In this document: positions 1 through 6,692 of the stretch, one piece after another
How positions within the stretch are numbered: position 1 is the first letter of the stretch
How the letters are laid out: each line of letters begins with the position of its first letter
DNA from: a virus
Taxonomy: Duplodnaviria; Heunggongvirae; Uroviricota; Caudoviricetes
Strand: one strand, 5' to 3'
Virus record (IMG/VR): IMGVR_UViG_2537562194_000022
Location: 1 to 6,692 of that record
DNA: 6,692 nt
Made by a program: the position numbers and the translations under genes
Notes under the pieces: model-generated
The model's input: only the letters and a program-made list of their open reading frames with translations
What the model was told of the DNA's origin: nothing
Databases searched by the model: none

Positions 1-189
1 TTTAAAACTGGTCGTCGTGCGGCGTTACGTGAGATCGAGGATGTGAAACACGATACGCGTGAAGCGGAAGATGTGCTGGATGTGGCGGTGGCCATTGCGG
101 AGGCAGACGGCGAAATTGAGCCGGAAGAGCGCAAGGTGCTGGAAGAGATTGCCGGTGTTCTGGGTCTTCGTCTGGAGAATCACCAGTGA
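1..189 (+). CDS. TerB-like domain protein, C-terminal fragment (5' end lies outside the window)
   Basis: Open frame from position 1 to TGA at 187-189, translating to FKTGRRAALREIEDVKHDTREAEDVLDVAVAIAEADGEIEPEERKVLEEIAGVLGLRLENHQ. The acidic AIAEADGEIEPEE...L segment resembles the TerB (tellurite-resistance-like) fold. Assignment is from motif memory only. Confidence 0.45.
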   Translation, partial: FKTGRRAALREIEDVKHDTREAEDVLDVAVAIAEADGEIEPEERKVLEEIAGVLGLRLENHQ

Positions 190-317
190 CGGTAAAACTG
201 CGCCTGGCTGTGGCTGCACTCCTGCTGTTTCTGGTGGTGATGGTGGATTTCACCAGCAGAATCATGTCGGTGCTGGCGGATGGGGTGCTGGTCTGCGGCA
301 TTGTGGTATTGCTGTAG
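186..317 (+). CDS. Small hydrophobic (probable membrane) peptide, 43 aa, possibly translationally coupled to the upstream gene
   Basis: GTG at 186-188 overlaps the upstream stop (caGTGAcg). Translation is MTVKLRLAVAALLLFLVVMVDFTSRIMSVLADGVLVCGIVVLL, ending at TAG 315-317, with two hydrophobic stretches. Below the length cut-off of the supplied ORF track. No homology evidence. Confidence 0.3.
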   Translation: MTVKLRLAVAALLLFLVVMVDFTSRIMSVLADGVLVCGIVVLL

Positions 318-349
318 CCGGTGATAAAAAGAAACAGCCTGCATAATGC

Positions 350-378
350 TTGATTTTTTTATTTGCTGTTTATTAAAA
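350..378 (+). promoter_or_regulatory. Putative sigma70-type promoter (TTGATT -35; AT-rich TATTAA/TTAAAA -10 region)
   Basis: TTGATT at 350-355 followed 15-17 bp later by tattaaaaat (371-380). The -10 is imperfect and lacks the conserved final T, so this is weak. Confidence 0.2.
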
Positions 379-520
379 ATACTACTGCATGGTGAATCCC
401 CCTGTGCGGAGGGGCAATCAGCAACCAGGTATATGTGATAATCGCGGATTCAGGTGCTGATACTGAATTCACCGGGAGGCACCCGGCACCATGCAAGAAA
501 AAGAATGTGCATGCAAACAT

Positions 521-544
521 GCCCCTCTCCGGAGGGGCTTTTTT
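521..544 (+). terminator. Rho-independent terminator
   Basis: 7-bp GC-rich stem gcccctc (521-527) / gaggggc (532-538), 4-nt loop tccg, followed directly by tttttt (539-544). Confidence 0.6.
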
Positions 545-636
545 ATGGGTAAAAAATGCCCGAATGGGTTCGGGCAATAGCATGAGATACTGATATTGTT
601 GTGTTGTTATCGTGTGGATTTTAACCAGGGTTTATC

Positions 637-663
637 AGGCTGCGCAACTGCGTGGCCTTTTTT
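637..663 (+). terminator. Second rho-independent terminator
   Basis: 9-bp stem aggctgcgc (637-645) / gcgtggcct (650-658) with two G-U wobbles, loop aact, then a T-run (658-663). Confidence 0.45.
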
Positions 664-670
664 CATTTCT

Positions 671-717
671 TGGGCTGTAGTCCCCGTGTGTCATTCAGGC
701 TTCCGGACTACAGCCCA
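671..717. promoter_or_regulatory. 13-bp perfect inverted repeat (operator-like or RNA stem-loop) about 45 bp upstream of the esterase start codon
   Basis: tgggctgtagtcc (671-683) is the exact reverse complement of ggactacagccca (705-717), separated by 21 nt. No T-run follows on either strand, so it is not a classical terminator. Confidence 0.4.
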
Positions 718-759
718 CTCCATATCTGATTTAATACACTATCCCGGCCGGGAGGAATA

Positions 760-2253
760 ATGACATTTAAACATTATGATGTTGTCAGGGCGGCGTCGCC
801 GTCAGACCTTGCGGAAAAGCTGACACACAAACTGAAAGAGGGCTGGCAGCCGTTTGGTAGTCCGGTGGCCATAACCCCGTACACACTGATGCAGGCGATG
901 ACAACAGAAGGAGAGCCACAGGTCAGCCCTGCAACTGAGCCGGATTGGTACTACGTCATCGTACTGGCCGGGCAGTCCAATGCCATGGCTTACGGTGAAG
1001 GGCTTCCGCTGCCGGATTCATACGATGCTCCGGATCCGCGCATTAAACAGCTGGCGCGCCGCAGTACAGTGACGCCGGGCGGGGCTGCCTGCAGATATAA
1101 CGATATTATTCCGGCCGACCACTGCCTGCATGATGTGCAGGATATGAGTACGCTGAATCATCCGAAGGCAGACCTGAGCAAAGGGCAGTACGGCTGTGTC
1201 GGCCAGGGCTTACATATTGCCAAAAAACTGCTTCCGTATATCCCGAATAACGCGGGGATCCTGCTGGTACCATGCTGTCGTGGTGGTTCGGCATTCACCC
1301 AGGGCGCGGAGGGGACATTCAGTGCGGACACGGGGGCCAGCCAGGATTCGGCGCGCTGGGGTGTGGGTAAACCGTTATATCAGGACCTGATTGCGCGCAC
1401 TAAAGCTGCATTACAGAAGAACCCGAAAAATGTGTTGCTGGCGGTGTGCTGGATGCAGGGAGAGTTTGACATGAGCGCCGCCACCCACGCACAGCAACCT
1501 GCGCTGTTTACAGCCATGCTGGCACAGTTTCGTGCTGACCTCTCCGTGTTTAACGCGCAGTGCCATGGTGGCAGTGCTGCAGATGTGCCGTGGATTTGTG
1601 GTGACACGACGTATTACTGGAAAAATACATACGCTACCCAGTACGACACCGTGTACGGCGGGTATAAAAACAGGGAGAGTGAGGGCGTTTATTTTGTGCC
1701 CTTCATGACAGACGGTAACGGCGTCAATACCGCCACTAACGCGCCGGCAGAAGATCCGGATATTCCGGCATCAGGATATTACGGTGCGGCATCGAGAACG
1801 AATGGAAACCAGGTATCATCAAACCGCCCGACACATTTCAGTTCATGGGCGCGCAGGAGCATTATTCCGGATCGTCTGGCAACCGCTATTCTGAACGCAG
1901 CCGGGCGCACCTCAGCCTTCATCAGTGGTAAGGCACCGGAAATCAAACCCTCGCCCGGCGGCAACACGCCATCGGGTCCGTCTGCAGATACGTCCGTTCG
2001 CACAATCTCCCTGCTGCCGGCAGCCGGAGAGGCTGCTGCGCAGGGCTGGAGCATTAAGGATGGCGGAATTCAGTTGTCAGATGGTGTATTTAAGATCACC
2101 AAGCAGAGCAATAAAACCTGGTCCCTGACGCATCCGGTGGATGACGCAATTACCCTGCTGACACAGGGCGGCAGACTGACCTGTGTCAGGCGCACTGACC
2201 AACAATCAGTTCGGGCTGGGGATTTATCTGTATACGGATGCTCCCGTTCCTGA
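760..2253 (+). CDS. nanS-p: Prophage sialate O-acetylesterase of the NanS-p type (DUF1737 N-terminal domain plus SGNH/SASA hydrolase domain); 3' end probably frame-shifted and truncated
   Basis: ATG at 760 preceded by gggagga RBS. The N-terminus MTFKHYDVVRAASPSDLAEKLTHKLKEGWQPFGSPVAI is DUF1737-like. VIVLAGQSNAMAYGEG carries the GQSN block of SGNH/sialate O-acetylesterase enzymes. 497-codon frame. Confidence 0.8.
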   Translation: MTFKHYDVVRAASPSDLAEKLTHKLKEGWQPFGSPVAITPYTLMQAMTTEGEPQVSPATEPDWYYVIVLAGQSNAMAYGEGLPLPDSYDAPDPRIKQLARRSTVTPGGAACRYNDIIPADHCLHDVQDMSTLNHPKADLSKGQYGCVGQGLHIAKKLLPYIPNNAGILLVPCCRGGSAFTQGAEGTFSADTGASQDSARWGVGKPLYQDLIARTKAALQKNPKNVLLAVCWMQGEFDMSAATHAQQPALFTAMLAQFRADLSVFNAQCHGGSAADVPWICGDTTYYWKNTYATQYDTVYGGYKNRESEGVYFVPFMTDGNGVNTATNAPAEDPDIPASGYYGAASRTNGNQVSSNRPTHFSSWARRSIIPDRLATAILNAAGRTSAFISGKAPEIKPSPGGNTPSGPSADTSVRTISLLPAAGEAAAQGWSIKDGGIQLSDGVFKITKQSNKTWSLTHPVDDAITLLTQGGRLTCVRRTDQQSVRAGDLSVYGCSRS

Positions 2254-2371
2254 TGGTGTGGCGATGACGGGTACCGGTAATCCGTTCCTGATGTCGTACT
2301 TCACTCAGACCACTGACGGCAGAGTGAATCTGATGCATCACAGGAAAGCCGGAAACACGAACTGGGGGTTC
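2183..2371 (+). pseudogene. Frame-shifted 3' continuation of the esterase gene, ending at the IS junction
   Basis: The +1 frame from about 2180 encodes protein-like sequence (ALTNNQFGLGIYLYTDAPVPDGVAMTGTGNPFLMSYFTQTTDGRVNLMHHRKAGNTNWGF), whereas the 760-frame ends in low-quality sequence (RLTCVRRTDQQSVRAGDLSVYGCSRS). The +1 frame runs into IS sequence at 2372. Confidence 0.4.
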
Positions 2372-2380
2372 ATCGATAGG
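2372..2380. repeat. IS91-like terminal repeat, ori-proximal end (downstream of tnpA)
   Basis: ATCGATAGG, preceded by GTTC at 2368-2371. Confidence 0.5.
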
Positions 2381-2558
2381 AATTTAAATCCCAAAAAGAT
2401 TAAAAAAACACCCAAAAACGGATGTTTATTCAACACTGCCTGCGTGCCATGAGTGCACCGCCGTCAATTAAATGGATCTTATCGATTGATACTGCATATC
2501 ACTGATGGTTTTTTACCCCATTCCCCTGAAAATGGACGCAACCTCTCCGATGCGGCTC

Positions 2559-3791
2559 TCAGCCGCACACCCGCTGTTGCGCCAGTGGCTCATGCATCAG
2601 GACCAGCTCTGTCAGACGGTAGCCCCGCTTCAGCCCCGTAAAACGCATCTGACCTCCGCACAGGATGCACTTCAGCGGGTCAACCTTCAGTAACCGCTGA
2701 TACATCCCTCTCCACCTGATTTGCATCGCCGTCTTTCTCACCGTCTCCGTTATGACGTACACAACATCTTCCAGTAACCGGCGCTTCACCGGACTCAGGA
2801 AACCGTAGTACCTCACCATACGGAACCCCTTATCCGCCACATGCCAGGAGAACCTTTCCATAAACTCATCACCACTCATCACCAGGTATTCTTCCCGTTT
2901 TGTCCGGTGACTGTTGTAACGCAGACCAATTTCATCCTGACCAGCATAGTGCTCCAGACGGCTCATCGGCACCGGCGGTTTTTTCAGGTAAGAGCCGAAG
3001 TACACCGCCACATGTGTGGCGTTATCCATCACCCGGGATACGTTGACATTCCAGCCCCGCCGGTAATGACTGTCCAGGAAGCGATTCCAGTCCCGTTTAC
3101 TGCTTCCTTCTGCTGCCAGCGCATCCGGTATCACCAGGTCCGGATATTTCCGTGACAGTAACCGCGTTATCCGGTAACGCCACATACTCATCACCTTACG
3201 GGCGTAAAAATGAAGGTTTTTCCAGGTGTGGTCTGATGTCACGCCGCCGGTCGTTGTCGACAGGTGAATGTGCGGATGCCACTGCTGGTCACGTCCCCAT
3301 GTGTGGATGACCGTGAATATCCCCGGCACCACATCTGCCTGGCGGCAGATTTCCTGTATCACATCCGCAGCAATGCGGCTCATCTCTGCCAGTAACCACC
3401 GGTTGTGGAACACCAGGGACCAGTACTGGCAGGGAAGTGTGAACACAATATGCTGCCACGGACAGTCGGGAACCAGACTCAGCAGATACTGTATCCACTG
3501 TGCGCCAGCCTTCACTCCGCAGTGCGGGCAGGAGCGACTTTTACACCGGAAGCAGATCTTTTTTATGTGGCTGCAGTCCGGAGATGAACAGCACCACTGT
3601 GTGTACCCCATCAGCGTGGTCCCGCAGGCCATGATTTTTGTCACAGACTCAATGACTACCGGACGCACTGAACCTTCCGGTTGTTTCTCCAGCCAGTTAA
3701 GCCAGCGGTTTCCCTGCTGAAAAATGTCGGCAAAACGGGGAAGCATCAGAAGGGCGGGGGGACTCCGTCCGGCCAGTGAACCGTGCCACAC
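2559..3791 (-). CDS. tnpA: IS91-family transposase TnpA (HUH Y2 rolling-circle transposase)
   Basis: 410-codon frame with a GTG start at 3791. N-terminal Cys-rich zinc-binding region (CCSSPDC...CFRCKSRSCPHC), HUH motif HPHIH, and a YxxxY pair (VYFGSY). The true start may differ. Confidence 0.9.
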   Translation of the reverse strand: MWHGSLAGRSPPALLMLPRFADIFQQGNRWLNWLEKQPEGSVRPVVIESVTKIMACGTTLMGYTQWCCSSPDCSHIKKICFRCKSRSCPHCGVKAGAQWIQYLLSLVPDCPWQHIVFTLPCQYWSLVFHNRWLLAEMSRIAADVIQEICRQADVVPGIFTVIHTWGRDQQWHPHIHLSTTTGGVTSDHTWKNLHFYARKVMSMWRYRITRLLSRKYPDLVIPDALAAEGSSKRDWNRFLDSHYRRGWNVNVSRVMDNATHVAVYFGSYLKKPPVPMSRLEHYAGQDEIGLRYNSHRTKREEYLVMSGDEFMERFSWHVADKGFRMVRYYGFLSPVKRRLLEDVVYVITETVRKTAMQIRWRGMYQRLLKVDPLKCILCGGQMRFTGLKRGYRLTELVLMHEPLAQQRVCG

Positions 3792-4111
3792 TCCGGGCAG
3801 TACATGCCGCCGGCGCTGATACCGGCAAGAATGGTCGCAAACTCCCGCTCCGTGCAGCGGGCTATTTCAGGATACCCTTCGTCATCAACACGTACAAACC
3901 AGAAGACCAGCTTTTTGTTTCCGGCATCCACAAAGAAGGGAATATTCAGGTCTGCGCAGCACTCAACGGCATCGTCAAAATTATCAAAGCGCAGAGCTTC
4001 TGCGTCTTCTTCGTCAAAGAAGTCATCGTCGTGAAGCTTCACGACATAGCGGGGAAGTTTGCTTCTTTGAGGGGCAGGTTTTCGTTTACGGGGTTTAGCT
4101 GAACGGGACAT
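3746..4111 (-). CDS. IS91 ORF121-like small protein (function unknown)
   Basis: 121-codon ORF with ATG at 4111, directly upstream of tnpA and overlapping its start by 46 bp. This length and position match the ORF121 of IS91. Confidence 0.75.
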   Translation of the reverse strand: MSRSAKPRKRKPAPQRSKLPRYVVKLHDDDFFDEEDAEALRFDNFDDAVECCADLNIPFFVDAGNKKLVFWFVRVDDEGYPEIARCTEREFATILAGISAGGMYCPECGTVHWPDGVPPPF

Positions 4112-4129
4112 ATAACTACCTGAAAGACA

Positions 4130-5572
4130 ATGATATTGTCTGTTTTTATAACGGTAATTTCAGGCCATGACAAGCCGCAGCCGCCAGGCTGCCTACTCGA
4201 TGATAAACAGCAGAGCGCCCTGACAAAAACAGAACGTGAGCTGGCCCTGTCCCGACTGAAGGGGGAGGAAAAAGAGCGTGTCCGGCTGGGGTATGCGGCG
4301 GATGACCTTGGTTTTGTGGGGGATTCGTATCAGGAGGCGAGACAGCGTTATATCAGTAATGCTCTGGAAGCCTGGCGTAATAACGAGGCGAACAAACCTA
4401 AATCCCGGGGTGGAAAATCAGAGACGGAAAAAGCGGAAGACAGTTTTTCCCGGCTACTGAAGCAGCAGAAAGAGCAACTGGCACTGGCCGGTCAGAACAC
4501 GGAGCTGGCGAAGCTGAAGTACCAGACAGCGCTGGGTGAACTGAAAACCCTGTCGGAGATACAGAAGCAGGAACTGCTGCGTAACGCGGCCCTGATTGAC
4601 CAGCAAAAAATCCGGGAACAGTTGCGATCCCGGGAAGAGACCCTGAAGAATGATAATGTGGCTGCGCGTGCATCAAATGAAGCCGAACTGCTGGGGTACG
4701 GGCAGGGAGAACGAGCCAGGGAACGCATGCGGGAGTTGCAGCAGATCCGCGACAGCTTCCGCCAGAAGGATGCGGACCTTCAGTCTCAGTATCAGACCGG
4801 GGATATCAGTGAGGATTTTTACAGACAGGCACGGGCACAGAACGCGCAGTATCTGAGCGAACGCCTTAAGGACCAGGCAGCCTTTTATGCCGAATCGGAT
4901 GCGCAGCGTGCGGACTGGCAGAAAGGCTTGCAGGAGGGGCTCAGTAACTGGGTGGACAATGCATCCGATTACGCTTCACAGGCAGCACAGCTTGCGACGG
5001 AGGGTATCTCAGGGATGGTGAATAACATCACGGAGATGCTGAACGGAAACAAAGTGGAATGGCGCAACTGGGCCTCATCCGTACTGCAGGAAATCTCAAA
5101 AGTTCTTATGAATGCCGCGATTGTCAACGGAATTAAGACGGCGGCAAACGGTATGTCCGGTGCGGGAGGATTTCTCGGCAGCATTGGTGACTGGCTGGGC
5201 GGGGCGGTGGCCAATGCAAAAGGCGGCGTGTATACCTCGGCAAACCTGAGTGCGTACAGCAACAGTATTGTGGATACGCCCACGTACTTTGCCTTTGCAA
5301 AAGGGGCGGGGCTGATGGGGGAGGCCGGACCTGAAGCCATTATGCCTCTGACGCGGGCGGCGGATGGCTCGCTGGGTGTGCGAGCGGTGGGCAGTATGAA
5401 CGGTAGTGCGGGTCTGGTGTATTCCCCGGTCTACCATATCGCCATTCAGAATGACGGGACTAATGGCCAGATAGGGCCGGAAGCTGCGGGCAGCCTTGTG
5501 CAGCTGATTGACCAGCGGGTGCAGGCGGTGATGCTGTCCATGCGACGTGACGGAGGAATGCTGAGTGGCTGA
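4130..5572 (+). CDS. H: Tail tape-measure protein (lambda gpH-like), C-terminal portion only; 5' end removed at the IS junction, first 24 codons are IS-derived
   Basis: Coiled-coil Q/E/R/K-rich middle, Gly-rich segment, and a C-terminus (VYHIAIQNDGTNGQIGPEAAGSLVQLIDQRVQAVMLSMRRDGGMLSG) that matches the lambda gpH C-terminus (NDGTNGQIGP...MRDGG). Phage-derived sequence begins at 4202, in frame. About 457 aa remain against about 850 for a full gpH. Confidence 0.85.
   Translation: MILSVFITVISGHDKPQPPGCLLDDKQQSALTKTERELALSRLKGEEKERVRLGYAADDLGFVGDSYQEARQRYISNALEAWRNNEANKPKSRGGKSETEKAEDSFSRLLKQQKEQLALAGQNTELAKLKYQTALGELKTLSEIQKQELLRNAALIDQQKIREQLRSREETLKNDNVAARASNEAELLGYGQGERARERMRELQQIRDSFRQKDADLQSQYQTGDISEDFYRQARAQNAQYLSERLKDQAAFYAESDAQRADWQKGLQEGLSNWVDNASDYASQAAQLATEGISGMVNNITEMLNGNKVEWRNWASSVLQEISKVLMNAAIVNGIKTAANGMSGAGGFLGSIGDWLGGAVANAKGGVYTSANLSAYSNSIVDTPTYFAFAKGAGLMGEAGPEAIMPLTRAADGSLGVRAVGSMNGSAGLVYSPVYHIAIQNDGTNGQIGPEAAGSLVQLIDQRVQAVMLSMRRDGGMLSG
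4192..4201. repeat. IS91-like terminal repeat, ter-proximal end (upstream of ORF121)
   Basis: cctactcgat; its reverse complement ATCGAGTAGG matches the left end with one indel. Confidence 0.5.
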
Positions 5573-5906
5573 GATAAAAACGCTGCATCTGGTCCCGCGT
5601 GAAGGGATGCAGGTGAGTGAGAAACCGTCGGTGGTGAGGGTTCGGTTTGGTGACGGTTATGAACAGCGCCGACCGACGGGACTTAATGCCAGACTGAAGA
5701 CGTTTCAGGCGGTGTTCCGGGTGACGGATGAACCAACCCGGCGCTGGCTGGATGAATTTTTATCCTGGCATGGTGGTTACCGTGCCTTTTTGTGGCGACC
5801 GCCGAAACATAACCGGACGGTGAGGGTGGTGTGCCGGGAGTGGAGCGTCACAGATAACGCCAGGTACAGTGATTTCAGTTGTACGATTGAGCAGGTGGTG
5901 AACTGA
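5565..5906 (+). CDS. M: Minor tail protein M (lambda gpM-like)
   Basis: GTG start overlapping the H stop (GTGGCTGA), with ggagga RBS 7 nt upstream. VRVRFGDGYEQRRPTGLNARLKTF...IEQVVN aligns with lambda gpM (VRKVRFGDGY...FEQVVN). Confidence 0.9.
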   Translation: MAEIKTLHLVPREGMQVSEKPSVVRVRFGDGYEQRRPTGLNARLKTFQAVFRVTDEPTRRWLDEFLSWHGGYRAFLWRPPKHNRTVRVVCREWSVTDNARYSDFSCTIEQVVN

Positions 5907-6604
5907 TGCAGGATATTCGCGAAGAAAGTCTGAACGAGTCGGTTAAGTCAGAGCAGTCACCGCGGGTGGTACTCTGGGAAATCGACCTGACGGTACAGGG
6001 TGGTGAGCGGTATTTTTTCTGTAATGAGCTGAATGAAAAAGGGGAGCCGGTCACCTGGCAGGGGCGTAAGTATGAGGCATACCCGATTGACGGCAGCGGC
6101 TTTGAGATGAACGGCCGGGGCAGCAGTGCCCGCCCGTCGCTGACGGTGTCCAATCTGTTTGGCCTTGTCACCGGGATGGCGGAGGACCTGCAGAGTCTGG
6201 TGGGGGCCACGGTGGTCCGCCGCCGGGTGTATGCCCGTTTTCTGGATGCGGTGAATTTCGTTGCGGGCAATCCGGAAGCGGACCCGGAGCAGGAGCTGAG
6301 CGACCGCTGGGTGGTGGAGCAGATGTCGCAGCTGACAGCCATGACGGCCTCGTTTGTGCTGGCTACACCGACCGAGACGGATGGGGCGCTGTTTCCCGGT
6401 CGCATCATGCTGGCGAACACCTGTATGTGGGATTACCGGGGAGATGAATGCGGGTATAACGGTCCTGCGGTGGCGGATGAGTTCGACAACCCCACCACGG
6501 ATATCCGGAAGGACAGATGCAGCAAGTGCATGCGCGGGTGTGAGATGCGCGGCATGGTGGCTAATTTTGGCGGTTTCCTTTCCATTAATAAACTTTCGCA
6601 GTAA
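5906..6604 (+). CDS. L: Minor tail protein L (lambda gpL-like)
   Basis: ATG overlaps the M stop (TGATG). 232 aa, as for lambda gpL. MQDIREESLNE...VVLWEIDLT...GGERYFFCNE...GEPVTWQGR...FGGFLSINKLSQ is collinear with lambda gpL along its length. Confidence 0.92.
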   Translation: MQDIREESLNESVKSEQSPRVVLWEIDLTVQGGERYFFCNELNEKGEPVTWQGRKYEAYPIDGSGFEMNGRGSSARPSLTVSNLFGLVTGMAEDLQSLVGATVVRRRVYARFLDAVNFVAGNPEADPEQELSDRWVVEQMSQLTAMTASFVLATPTETDGALFPGRIMLANTCMWDYRGDECGYNGPAVADEFDNPTTDIRKDRCSKCMRGCEMRGMVANFGGFLSINKLSQ

Positions 6605-6614
6605 ATCCTGTTTT

Positions 6615-6692
6615 ATGACACAGACTGAATCAGCGATTCTGGTGCATGCCCGGCGGTGTGCGCCTGCGGAGTCGTGCGGCTTCGTGATAGGC
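6615..6692 (+). CDS. K: Tail assembly protein K (lambda gpK-like), N-terminal 26 codons; continues beyond the window
   Basis: ATG at 6615, 10 bp after the L stop. MTQTESAILVHARRCAPAESCGFVIG matches the lambda gpK N-terminus. Confidence 0.85.
   Translation, partial: MTQTESAILVHARRCAPAESCGFVIG

Follow-up and report, generated by a model that had tools for sequence, protein, structure and literature searches.

The window analysed here, 6,692 bp that make up the whole contig of a draft assembly, belongs to a decayed prophage of O111-type E. coli and carries at positions 2372-4199 an intact, recently active IS91 or a very close isoform, the identity with IS91 being set by description. The GTTC tetranucleotide abutting this element marks a later deletion of 15.8 kb beside it and not its primary insertion site, which is in the phage tail tape-measure gene. 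We hold it highly probable that the identity of the element, its boundaries and a transposase-made origin of the GTTC junction are jointly correct, a judgement that does not cover the one-step route favoured below. The IS91 element itself is already known and is an ordinary, textbook insertion sequence.

Organization of the window

The features are given below with their positions, strand and the evidence used for their assignment.

760..2371, plus strand: 5' part of a nanS-p-like esterase gene (DUF1737, SASA and DUF6645; Pfam)
2368..2371, plus strand: GTTC target tetranucleotide abutting oriIS, the final bases of the retained esterase part and outside the IS
2372..4199, minus strand: complete IS91-type insertion sequence of 1,828 bp (empty site, seven other contexts, near-identical copies elsewhere)
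2372..2453, plus strand: putative oriIS region, terminal 82 bp (palindromes; function by homology)
2559..3746, minus strand: tnpA, HUH/Y2 transposase of 395 aa, stop codon within the coordinates (Pfam, NCBIfam, motifs)
3746..4111, minus strand: orf121, 121 aa (ORF list; exact protein named 'IS91 orf2' in UniRef)
4112..4199, plus strand: terIS region of 88 bp, including the orf121 leader (hairpin and CTCG)
4200..5572, plus strand: 3' part of a phage tail tape-measure gene, about 457 codons (Pfam Tape_meas_lam_C; annotation of strains 95NR1 and 11128; empty site)

The 'bottom' strand of the element, which runs from oriIS at its 5' side to terIS at its 3' side, corresponds to the plus strand of the window; the genes of the element lie on the minus strand. 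No tRNA genes are found within the 6,692-nt window.

Gene content and identity of the element

Both ORFs that an earlier note on this DNA had recognised as hallmarks of IS91 are present, with orf121 upstream of tnpA and its TGA stop codon overlapping the tnpA ATG by one base in an ATGA (shared base 3746). TnpA is the HUH/YxxxY enzyme that the note described. It matches the Pfam profiles Y2_Tnp (9.7e-40) and Zn_Tnp_IS91 (3e-19), the latter corresponding to an N-terminal zinc-binding domain, and the NCBIfam profile transpos_IS91 with 291.5 bits (cut-off 125). Its motifs are HPHIH at 157-161 (H157), YFGSY at 249-253 (Y249-xxx-Y253) and CxxC at 65, 73 and 360. The exact TnpA sequence is found on 841 contigs, where it is annotated as an IS91 family transposase, and the exact Orf121 protein on at least 1,000 contigs. 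In IS91, Orf121 is a regulator of transposition. Searches of the Pfam and NCBIfam profiles gave no match for Orf121, whose C105-xx-C108 fits the motif described for the IS91 protein (PMC13181058).

These traits agree with the description of IS91 (prototype X17114; Mendiola et al. 1992; Fauconnier et al. 2026, PMC13181058). That element likewise has a 121-aa orf121 that overlaps tnpA in ATGA, a C105xxC108 in Orf121 and an HUH/Y2 enzyme with an N-terminal zinc-binding domain. It has oriIS downstream of tnpA at 5'-GTTC/CTTG and a ter hairpin followed by 5'-CTCG, makes no target duplication, and resides in E. coli chromosomes and plasmids. IS91 isoforms are delimited in PMC13181058 by a nucleotide identity to X17114.5 of 95% or more along the whole element and by a TnpA identity to CAD30457.1 of 95% or more. 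The copy in the window also appears, from its letters, to have the distinct ends with subterminal palindromes, and no long terminal inverted repeats, that are usual in the family.

The element could stand on the side of the sister element ISEc37 rather than be IS91 itself, which we consider unlikely. ISEc37 of plasmid pECTm80 is of the same family and architecture, has a tnpA ORF of 1,185 nt, about the same length as here, and is 95% identical to IS91 (PMC3332091). One protein in the same 90% cluster bears an ISEc37-family name, and a length of 1,828 bp, not 1,830 bp, also speaks for the sister. However, TnpA is only 94% identical to this ISEc37-annotated protein, about the distance that separates ISEc37 from IS91 (95%, PMC3332091), and the copy is not ISEc37 itself. 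The name 'IS91 orf2' of the exact Orf121 protein argues in the same direction, as do the CTCG of terIS, the 88-nt orf121 leader, the ATGA overlap and C105xxC108, which all fit the IS91 description. The 395 aa of TnpA are of a size compatible with the 47-kDa tagged IS91 protein (PMC13181058). A search of the literature full text with the terminal sequences of the element returned unrelated primer matches only.

Ends of the element

The oriIS end is at 2372, where the earlier note had placed the left end, and its first letters are ATCGATAGG. This boundary is exact, the similarity beginning at the A of 2372 in every independent copy examined. The ori end is the one downstream of tnpA. GTTC at 2368-2371 is the target tetranucleotide, as had been noted; GTTC adjoins the ori end in six other independent contexts and is a reported IS91 target (PMC13181058).

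The terIS end (...CTACTCG) is at 4199, with CTCG at 4196-4199 and CTCG last in all copies, and not at 4201 as first thought. Positions 4200-4201 (AT) are already part of the tape-measure gene, whose uninterrupted form, read directly in L007, is CCACCCTGG followed at once by ATGATAAACAG. Removal of exactly 1,828 bp restores this sequence with no target-site duplication. The synthetic empty site made in this way has matches that cover 80% of it or more in 1,955 genomes, and the best matches listed align end to end in one piece. Seven independent copies elsewhere start with ATCGATAGG, end with ...CCTACTCG and continue into unrelated sequence. The length of exactly 1830 bp proposed earlier was reached because two flanking bases had been counted. 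The true length, 1,828 bp, compares with the 1,830 bp that Mendiola et al. in 1992 are said to have given for IS91, the two elements being compared by description. Once the ter end is set at 4199, the inverted similarity of the two ends shortens to CGATAGG / CGAGTAGG, about 7-8 nt; imperfectly inverted ends remain, and the last two letters formerly included belong to the flank.

For IS91 the final 82 bp and the adjacent tetranucleotide are enough for transposition, and oriIS has two imperfect subterminal palindromes (PMC13181058). Imperfect palindromes are found in the putative oriIS region at 2379-2391 (GGAATTTAAATCC) and 2406-2427, and the DNA folds of this region are no better than those of shuffled sequences (z about 0). 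At the ter side a hairpin GCAGCC-GCCA-GGCTGC at 4177-4192 is followed by CTACTCG, and the fold of 4120-4210 (91 nt, 11 flanking bases included) has -13.5 kcal/mol with z = -2.6, the sole fold of the ori and ter regions that stands out from shuffles. A consensus promoter scan of the terIS region and orf121 leader gave no sigma-70-like site for orf121.

Ancestral insertion and ori-anchored deletions

The terIS junction of the window is shared by 37 complete O111 genomes. In 33 of them this copy sits beside CTGG as a simple insertion that interrupts the tape-measure gene and has made no duplication, which identifies this gene as the original target. The prophage of strain 11128 illustrates this state, with an intact esterase gene (616 aa), with lysis, terminase, head and tail genes, and with IS91 as a simple insertion. 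IS91 targets 5'-GTTC/CTTG, has 5'-CTCG as terIS cleavage tetranucleotide, uses the bottom strand as active strand and makes no target duplication; CTGG was its target once in 292 events (PMC13181058). The original insertion differs from common IS91 practice in the use of this rare site. The lack of a duplication claimed earlier holds for the simple insertion in strain 11128; it is not readable from the window because the flanks there, esterase and tape-measure gene, are non-contiguous DNA.

O111 chromosomes have 7-11 places that match the element. Copies in at least six different contexts are identical across the 1,828 bp, which indicates recent transposition, and the rolling-circle IS91-type element of the window is intact and looks active on this evidence, in line with the earlier reading. 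The window copy differs by one base, a private SNP at 2543, from those in 11128, 95NR1, 8B, 9662 and others.

In the window the ori end abuts GTTC within the esterase gene. The missing 15.8 kb hold the lysis, terminase, head and tail genes together with the 5' half of the tape-measure gene. The deletion cuts the esterase gene at this GTTC, which in the intact gene is followed by GGCGATTACGG; the retained part is frameshifted too by an 11-bp deletion at 2183. The remaining four of the 37 genomes carry three different, nested deletions, each starting exactly at the ori end:

Deletion 1, outer end at GTTC in the esterase gene: strains 95NR1 and 95JB1, as in the window
Deletion 2, outer end at CTTG upstream of the esterase gene: strain 8B
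Deletion 3, outer end at GTTC inside an IS1203 copy: strain 9662

A target tetranucleotide abuts the ori end downstream of tnpA in all these arrangements (GTTC, CTTG or, at the ancestral site, CTGG). Across the upstream 20 kb, GTTC and CTTG take up 0.49% of positions, so that three of three junctions would fall on them by chance with a probability of about 1e-7; the presence of GTTC beside the ori end is beyond chance. No homology beyond the tetranucleotides is able to place the junction there. The closely related isolates 8B and 8E differ by an ori-anchored deletion, 8E having the simple insertion.

Formation of the GTTC junction

The series began when a lambdoid prophage of the O111 lineage received a single IS91 in its tape-measure gene by rolling-circle (HUH) transposition, which placed oriIS beside CTGG and made no target duplication. 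In the lineage of the window, 95NR1 and 95JB1, a secondary event then joined the ori end to the canonical GTTC 15.8 kb upstream on the same strand. No ter-side variant was seen, and the reciprocal junction of terIS with the esterase gene, expected of a two-copy intermediate, is present in 0 of 5,426 genomes. Deletions at the ori end only and the absence of this intermediate point to the transposase joining the ori end to upstream tetranucleotides, a reaction demonstrated in experiments for IS801.

We lean towards a one-step intramolecular reaction, whose chemistry and number of steps we infer. TnpA would nick the bottom strand between CTGG and ATCG at the ori and between GTTC and GGCG upstream. 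The 3'-OH of GTTC would be linked to the 5' terminus of the IS, the strand between the two nicks would be released, and replication would fix the deletion in one daughter. More tentatively, and at slightly less than even chances, we propose that IS91 transposase directly makes one-step, unidirectional chromosomal deletions from the ori to same-strand upstream GTTC/CTTG, needing neither a second copy nor recombination. In the one published study of intramolecular IS91 transposition, Bernales et al. (1999, cited in PMC13181058) reportedly obtained second-site simple insertions rather than deletions, which we count against our best explanation.

The strongest competitor, somewhat less probable than the one-step reaction, is that a second IS91 inserted in the same orientation at the esterase GTTC and that RecA-dependent recombination between the 1.8-kb direct repeats deleted the interval with one of the copies. 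The donor copy stays in place after IS91 transposition and the O111 chromosomes have their 7-11 matching places, both favourable to such a course, and recombination between copies of IS801 likewise causes deletions (PMC6354349). The product would be the sequence observed; the one-step and two-step routes yield the same final sequence. Against it stand the missing junction of the intermediate and the expectation that two steps should give deletions on both sides, all three of those observed being ori-side, which is weak statistics with three events. The junction of GTTC with the ori end is transposase-made under both routes.

Three other accounts of the junction are very improbable. The earlier note took the element for an IS91 of exactly 1,830 bp (2372-4201) that had entered by simple rolling-circle insertion at the GTTC target and was still at its place of insertion. 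GTTC before the ori end supports this, as does the habit of IS91 to insert without duplication and to favour GTTC/CTTG (PMC13181058). However, the genes of the two flanks are 15.8 kb apart in the ancestral prophage, the same copy lies beside CTGG as a simple insertion in 33 genomes, and the empty site with the seven other copies sets the ter end at 4199, giving 1,828 bp. GTTC is not the primary insertion junction.

An assembly artefact, in which the repeat would have led the draft contig to fuse flanks from two different IS91 copies, the left of one and the right of the other, is equally improbable. It is suggested by the window being a whole draft contig, by three unusual single-base deletions at 2361-2367, immediately before the junction and private to the window, and by the private SNP in the IS. 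We reject such a chimera because two closed PacBio genomes, 95NR1 and 95JB1 (PMC6602927), share the order esterase, IS91, tape-measure gene; moreover, no complete genome has an IS91 copy with the other esterase half that could be the source of a chimera.

Least probable of all is a deletion independent of the transposase, by illegitimate or microhomology-mediated recombination or by prophage mosaic exchange with a coincidental GTTC: lambdoid prophages recombine often and the substitutions between the window and 95NR1 are clustered, yet three independent deletions run from the first IS base to GTTC, CTTG and GTTC, for which the chance is that given above. Microhomology at the deletion junction was rejected as a candidate, the shared CGAT being 2 nt inside both partners and the junction between GTTC and ATCG not lying where recombination within it would put it.

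Comparison with other IS91-family elements

The closest parallel to the one-step reaction is the deletions by one-ended transposition of IS801 in Pseudomonas savastanoi plasmids, which are also of variable size; one of their borders is always ori801, and the second falls at GAAC/CAAG, the target tetranucleotide on the other strand (Bardaji et al. 2019, PMC6354349). In those laboratory-selected events a small circle that keeps the replicon is retained, whereas in the natural O111 variants the chromosome is retained and 16-20 kb of prophage are lost. IS801 is without orf121, which is present here. IS1294 and ISCR are rolling-circle IS91-family elements as well, and they share the ori and ter ends and the use of tetranucleotide targets. 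A well-known side reaction of these elements, read-through beyond terIS, mobilises ter-side DNA; the rearrangements here, in contrast, are all ori-side. In the literature searched, one-step adjacent deletions are reported for IS801 on plasmids and none was found for IS91 or for chromosomes. An mBio 2024 paper on IS-mediated adjacent deletions has no IS91, the matching term being IS911.

Implications for IS91 and the O111 prophages

Neither a remembered length nor the inverted similarity of the termini can fix the boundaries of IS91-family elements: two flanking bases chanced here to lengthen the repeat and to reproduce '1830'. Likewise, a canonical target tetranucleotide beside the ori end is no proof of primary insertion. 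Made up of a single ancestral insertion and of three independent deletions that run from the ori end to GTTC, CTTG and GTTC, the O111 series is a clean natural record that shows IS91 removing late and structural prophage genes in a pathogen lineage. It is, in addition, a simple system in which to ask whether IS91-family transposases make one-step adjacent deletions. If the one-step reading is true, IS91 would be a natural generator of nested deletions that erodes prophages in EHEC O111.

Organization of the prophage region

The window covers 6,692 bp of a lambdoid prophage and represents the whole contig AEZV02000056.1 of a draft E. coli assembly. Its features are, from left to right:

Left edge: end of a TerB-like gene, then a small DUF3927 gene
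361-550, plus strand: STnc100 sRNA gene (148 bits, above the Rfam gathering score)
551-612, minus strand: AgvB sRNA gene, anti-GcvB of EHEC prophages (96.5 bits, above the Rfam gathering score)
From 760: nanS-p-like esterase gene (Pfam DUF1737 and SASA; DUF6645 beyond a frameshift)
2372-4199: IS91-type element, between the esterase and tape-measure genes
2559-3746, minus strand: tnpA, 395 aa
3746-4111, minus strand: orf121, 121 aa
Right of the element: 3' part of the tail tape-measure gene (Pfam Tape_meas_lam_C)
Downstream of the tape-measure part: minor tail genes

The STnc100 and AgvB genes are prophage-borne, neighbouring and convergent, directly upstream of the esterase gene. Taken as a whole, the window best matches 95NR1 and 95JB1, both O111:H- outbreak strains (99.0% identity across 114-6689). 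Substitutions relative to 95NR1 are not evenly spread and occur in patches (879-929, 1393-1446, 4489-4561, 6487-6661), a pattern that would fit mosaic recombination of prophages or paralogues collapsed in the draft assembly. The esterase gene is frameshifted by an 11-bp deletion at window 2183 relative to the intact 11128 allele, and that of 95NR1 is likewise flagged as frameshifted by RefSeq, indicating that the gene was broken earlier than, or independently of, its IS91-linked truncation. In the early region of this prophage, the sites occupied by IS1203 copies differ between O111 strains. One of them is cut in strain 9662 by an IS91-anchored deletion; two IS families are thus eroding the O111 prophage.

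A known IS91-type element of 1,828 bp

The gene pair, the family matches of TnpA and the element ends confirm that a known IS91-type element was correctly spotted in the earlier note. TnpA matches Pfam Y2_Tnp and Zn_Tnp_IS91 as well as NCBIfam transpos_IS91 (291 bits, cut-off 125). Its HUH motif is H157-P-H-I-H, its tyrosine pair is Y249/Y253, and CxxC motifs lie at 65, 73 and 360. Orf121 gave no match in the family search; it carries C105-xx-C108, a motif that Fauconnier et al. (PMC13181058) highlighted in the Orf121 of IS91. The exact TnpA is found on 841 contigs and the exact Orf121 on at least 1,000. UniRef names the latter sequence 'IS91 orf2', and RefSeq labels the gene pair 'IS91 family transposase' and 'hypothetical protein'. 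All IS91 features tested were found: overlap of the tnpA ATG by the orf121 TGA, CTCG at the ter end (terIS), a GTTC/CTTG target, a Y2 HUH transposase and no target duplication. Indirect signs favour IS91 itself or a near isoform. TnpA shares 94% identity with an ISEc37-family protein (by name), ISEc37 and IS91 being 95% identical (PMC3332091), and its 395 aa are consistent with the 47-kDa tagged IS91 TnpA of PMC13181058. The element is already known and there is nothing new in the element itself. The 1992 IS91 abstract is said to place the tnpA start at bp 454; window 3746 is exactly bp 454 counted from 4199, which we take to match that start. A 480-aa ORF is also predicted at 4130-5572 (plus strand), with its ATG within terIS and running in frame into the tape-measure 3' part; gene callers annotate this ORF as a protein.

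Strain 11128 (O111:H-) carries the same element, with 1 base different (2543), inside a tape-measure gene that is otherwise continuous. Excision of exactly 1,828 bp from 11128 joins CCACCCTGG to ATGATAAACAG, the uninterrupted tape-measure sequence, and this joint is read directly in the uninterrupted gene of strain 2014C-3011. For the synthetic empty site, 1,955 genomes have a match covering 80% or more of it, the best matches listed being single pieces of full length. Copies with an identical transposase in 7 other contexts invariably start with ATCGATAGG (7/7) and finish with CCTACTCG (7/7), with unrelated sequence outside both ends; they are 1,828 bp long, 1,827 in one. Empty site and other copies together assign the element to 2372-4199. 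The ori end (oriIS), downstream of tnpA, hence lies where the earlier note had put it, while the right end is two bases short of the proposed 4201 and the length is 1,828 rather than 1830 bp. The difference comes from counting in the AT at 4200-4201, tape-measure bases that fortuitously lengthen the terminal inverted similarity.

The final four bases (4196-4199) are CTCG, the terIS cleavage tetranucleotide of IS91 (PMC13181058). A hairpin GCAGCC-GCCA-GGCTGC (4177-4192) forms the subterminal palindrome of the ter end (compare PMC13181058), and the ori end has imperfect palindromes at 2379-2391 and 2406-2427. The plus strand reads 5'-target, ori ... ter, CTCG-3' and equals the bottom strand of PMC13181058, the active strand in IS91. 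A 1,827-bp IS91 copy adjoins GTTC between glmU and atpC in CP077465.1; it is 1 base short, the comparison shifting from about window 2408 in an A-rich stretch, and the 18 similar places reported indicate a chromosomal insertion common to many.

The view that the copy is intact holds for both ORFs and both ends; its activity is presumed from the sequence, in which nothing appears to count against it. Copies in at least 6 chromosomal and plasmid contexts are identical across 1,828 bp, O111 chromosomes have 7-11 matching places each, and the human isolates 8B and 8E (Idaho) differ by one of the deletions described below. TnpA from another copy could act in trans. CP074861.1 (4351483-4382311) has three IS91 copies, 12.32 kb apart and in one orientation, with pairwise shared flanks: gntP side, IS, nlpD-pcm ... 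cysN-cysD, IS, nlpD-pcm ... cysN-cysD, IS, hok side. The trio suggests that a chromosomal segment bounded by IS91 copies was duplicated in tandem.

Nested deletions anchored at the ori end

GTTC at 2368-2371 adjoins the ori end. Its reading as an IS91 target is upheld by 6 other independent copies with GTTC beside ori, and its position is not due to chance; more than 90% of experimental IS91 insertions are next to 5'-CTTG or 5'-GTTC (PMC13181058). Comparison with 11128 reveals that the junction, made by IS91, is not the first insertion and results instead from a secondary 15.8-kb prophage deletion. The prophage is also present in strain 11128, with the same Cro and DUF3927 proteins, in the order intact 616-aa esterase gene, holin, lysozyme, terminase, capsid, portal, tail and tape-measure gene interrupted by IS91. 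The window and 95NR1/95JB1 are without 15,830 bp, starting with the base that follows the esterase-gene GTTC and ending with the one that precedes the ori end. In the primary insertion CTGG, a rare IS91 target (1/292 events; PMC13181058), stands beside ori, and the window GTTC is a secondary site, not the original landing site of the copy.

The terIS/tape-measure junction is present in exactly 37 complete genomes, all O111 (37/37), none of which has a ter-side variant. The ancestral ori junction is found in 33 of the 37, the exceptions being 95NR1, 95JB1, 8B and 9662. The 8B copy has its ori end next to an intergenic CTTG upstream of the esterase gene (window 669-672), and 17,547 bp of the 11128 arrangement are missing. 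In 9662 the ori end adjoins GTTC within an IS1203 copy further upstream; intact IS1203 reads ACGATTTTC past that GTTC. The window junction is thus one of three nested IS91-made deletions in O111, which the earlier note had missed. Each of the three has the first IS base as one border and, as the other, the position just past a same-strand canonical IS91 target. Since GTTC and CTTG together make up 0.49% of positions in the 20 kb upstream, all three would fall at targets by chance with a probability of about 1e-7. Comparison of the undeleted sequence past the tetranucleotides with the IS end uncovered no homology able to set the junction position.

Three single-base deletions (2361, 2363, 2367), 5-11 nt left of the GTTC-oriIS joint, are unique to the window, which reads GAACTGGGGGTTC where all other alleles (95NR1, 8B, 11128) read GAAGCTGGGGGAGTTC. 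The deletions are either a draft-assembly error or a real scar. C at 2543 is also private to the window. The source being a draft contig, the simplest reading of private differences is errors near a repeat boundary.

Probable mechanism of deletion

It is established for the HUH superfamily, as PMC13181058 relates from Chandler et al. 2013, that the nucleases cut ssDNA, remain attached to the 5' phosphate and expose a 3'-OH. IS91 TnpA cuts 3' of the ori tetranucleotide and 3' of a target tetranucleotide. With a target located upstream in cis, on the same strand, its 3'-OH would be joined to the IS 5' end, giving exactly the joint seen, GTTC followed by ATCGATAGG. The strand between target and ori would be released and replication would yield one deleted chromosome. 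We lean towards the hypothesis that this single reaction made the deletion; it would account for events restricted to the ori side and for the absence of an intermediate. A less probable scenario, insertion of a new copy at GTTC followed by its recombination with the old one, leads to the same final sequence; however, the reciprocal terIS-esterase junction of its intermediate was found in none of 5,426 genomes. The GTTC-ori junction is transposase-made by either route.

The closest experimental precedent for ori-anchored deletions is IS801, whose Pseudomonas plasmid deletion derivatives all have an ori801 border, the other border being GAAC or CAAG (PMC6354349). The O111 deletion series is a natural example of behaviour already known in the family.
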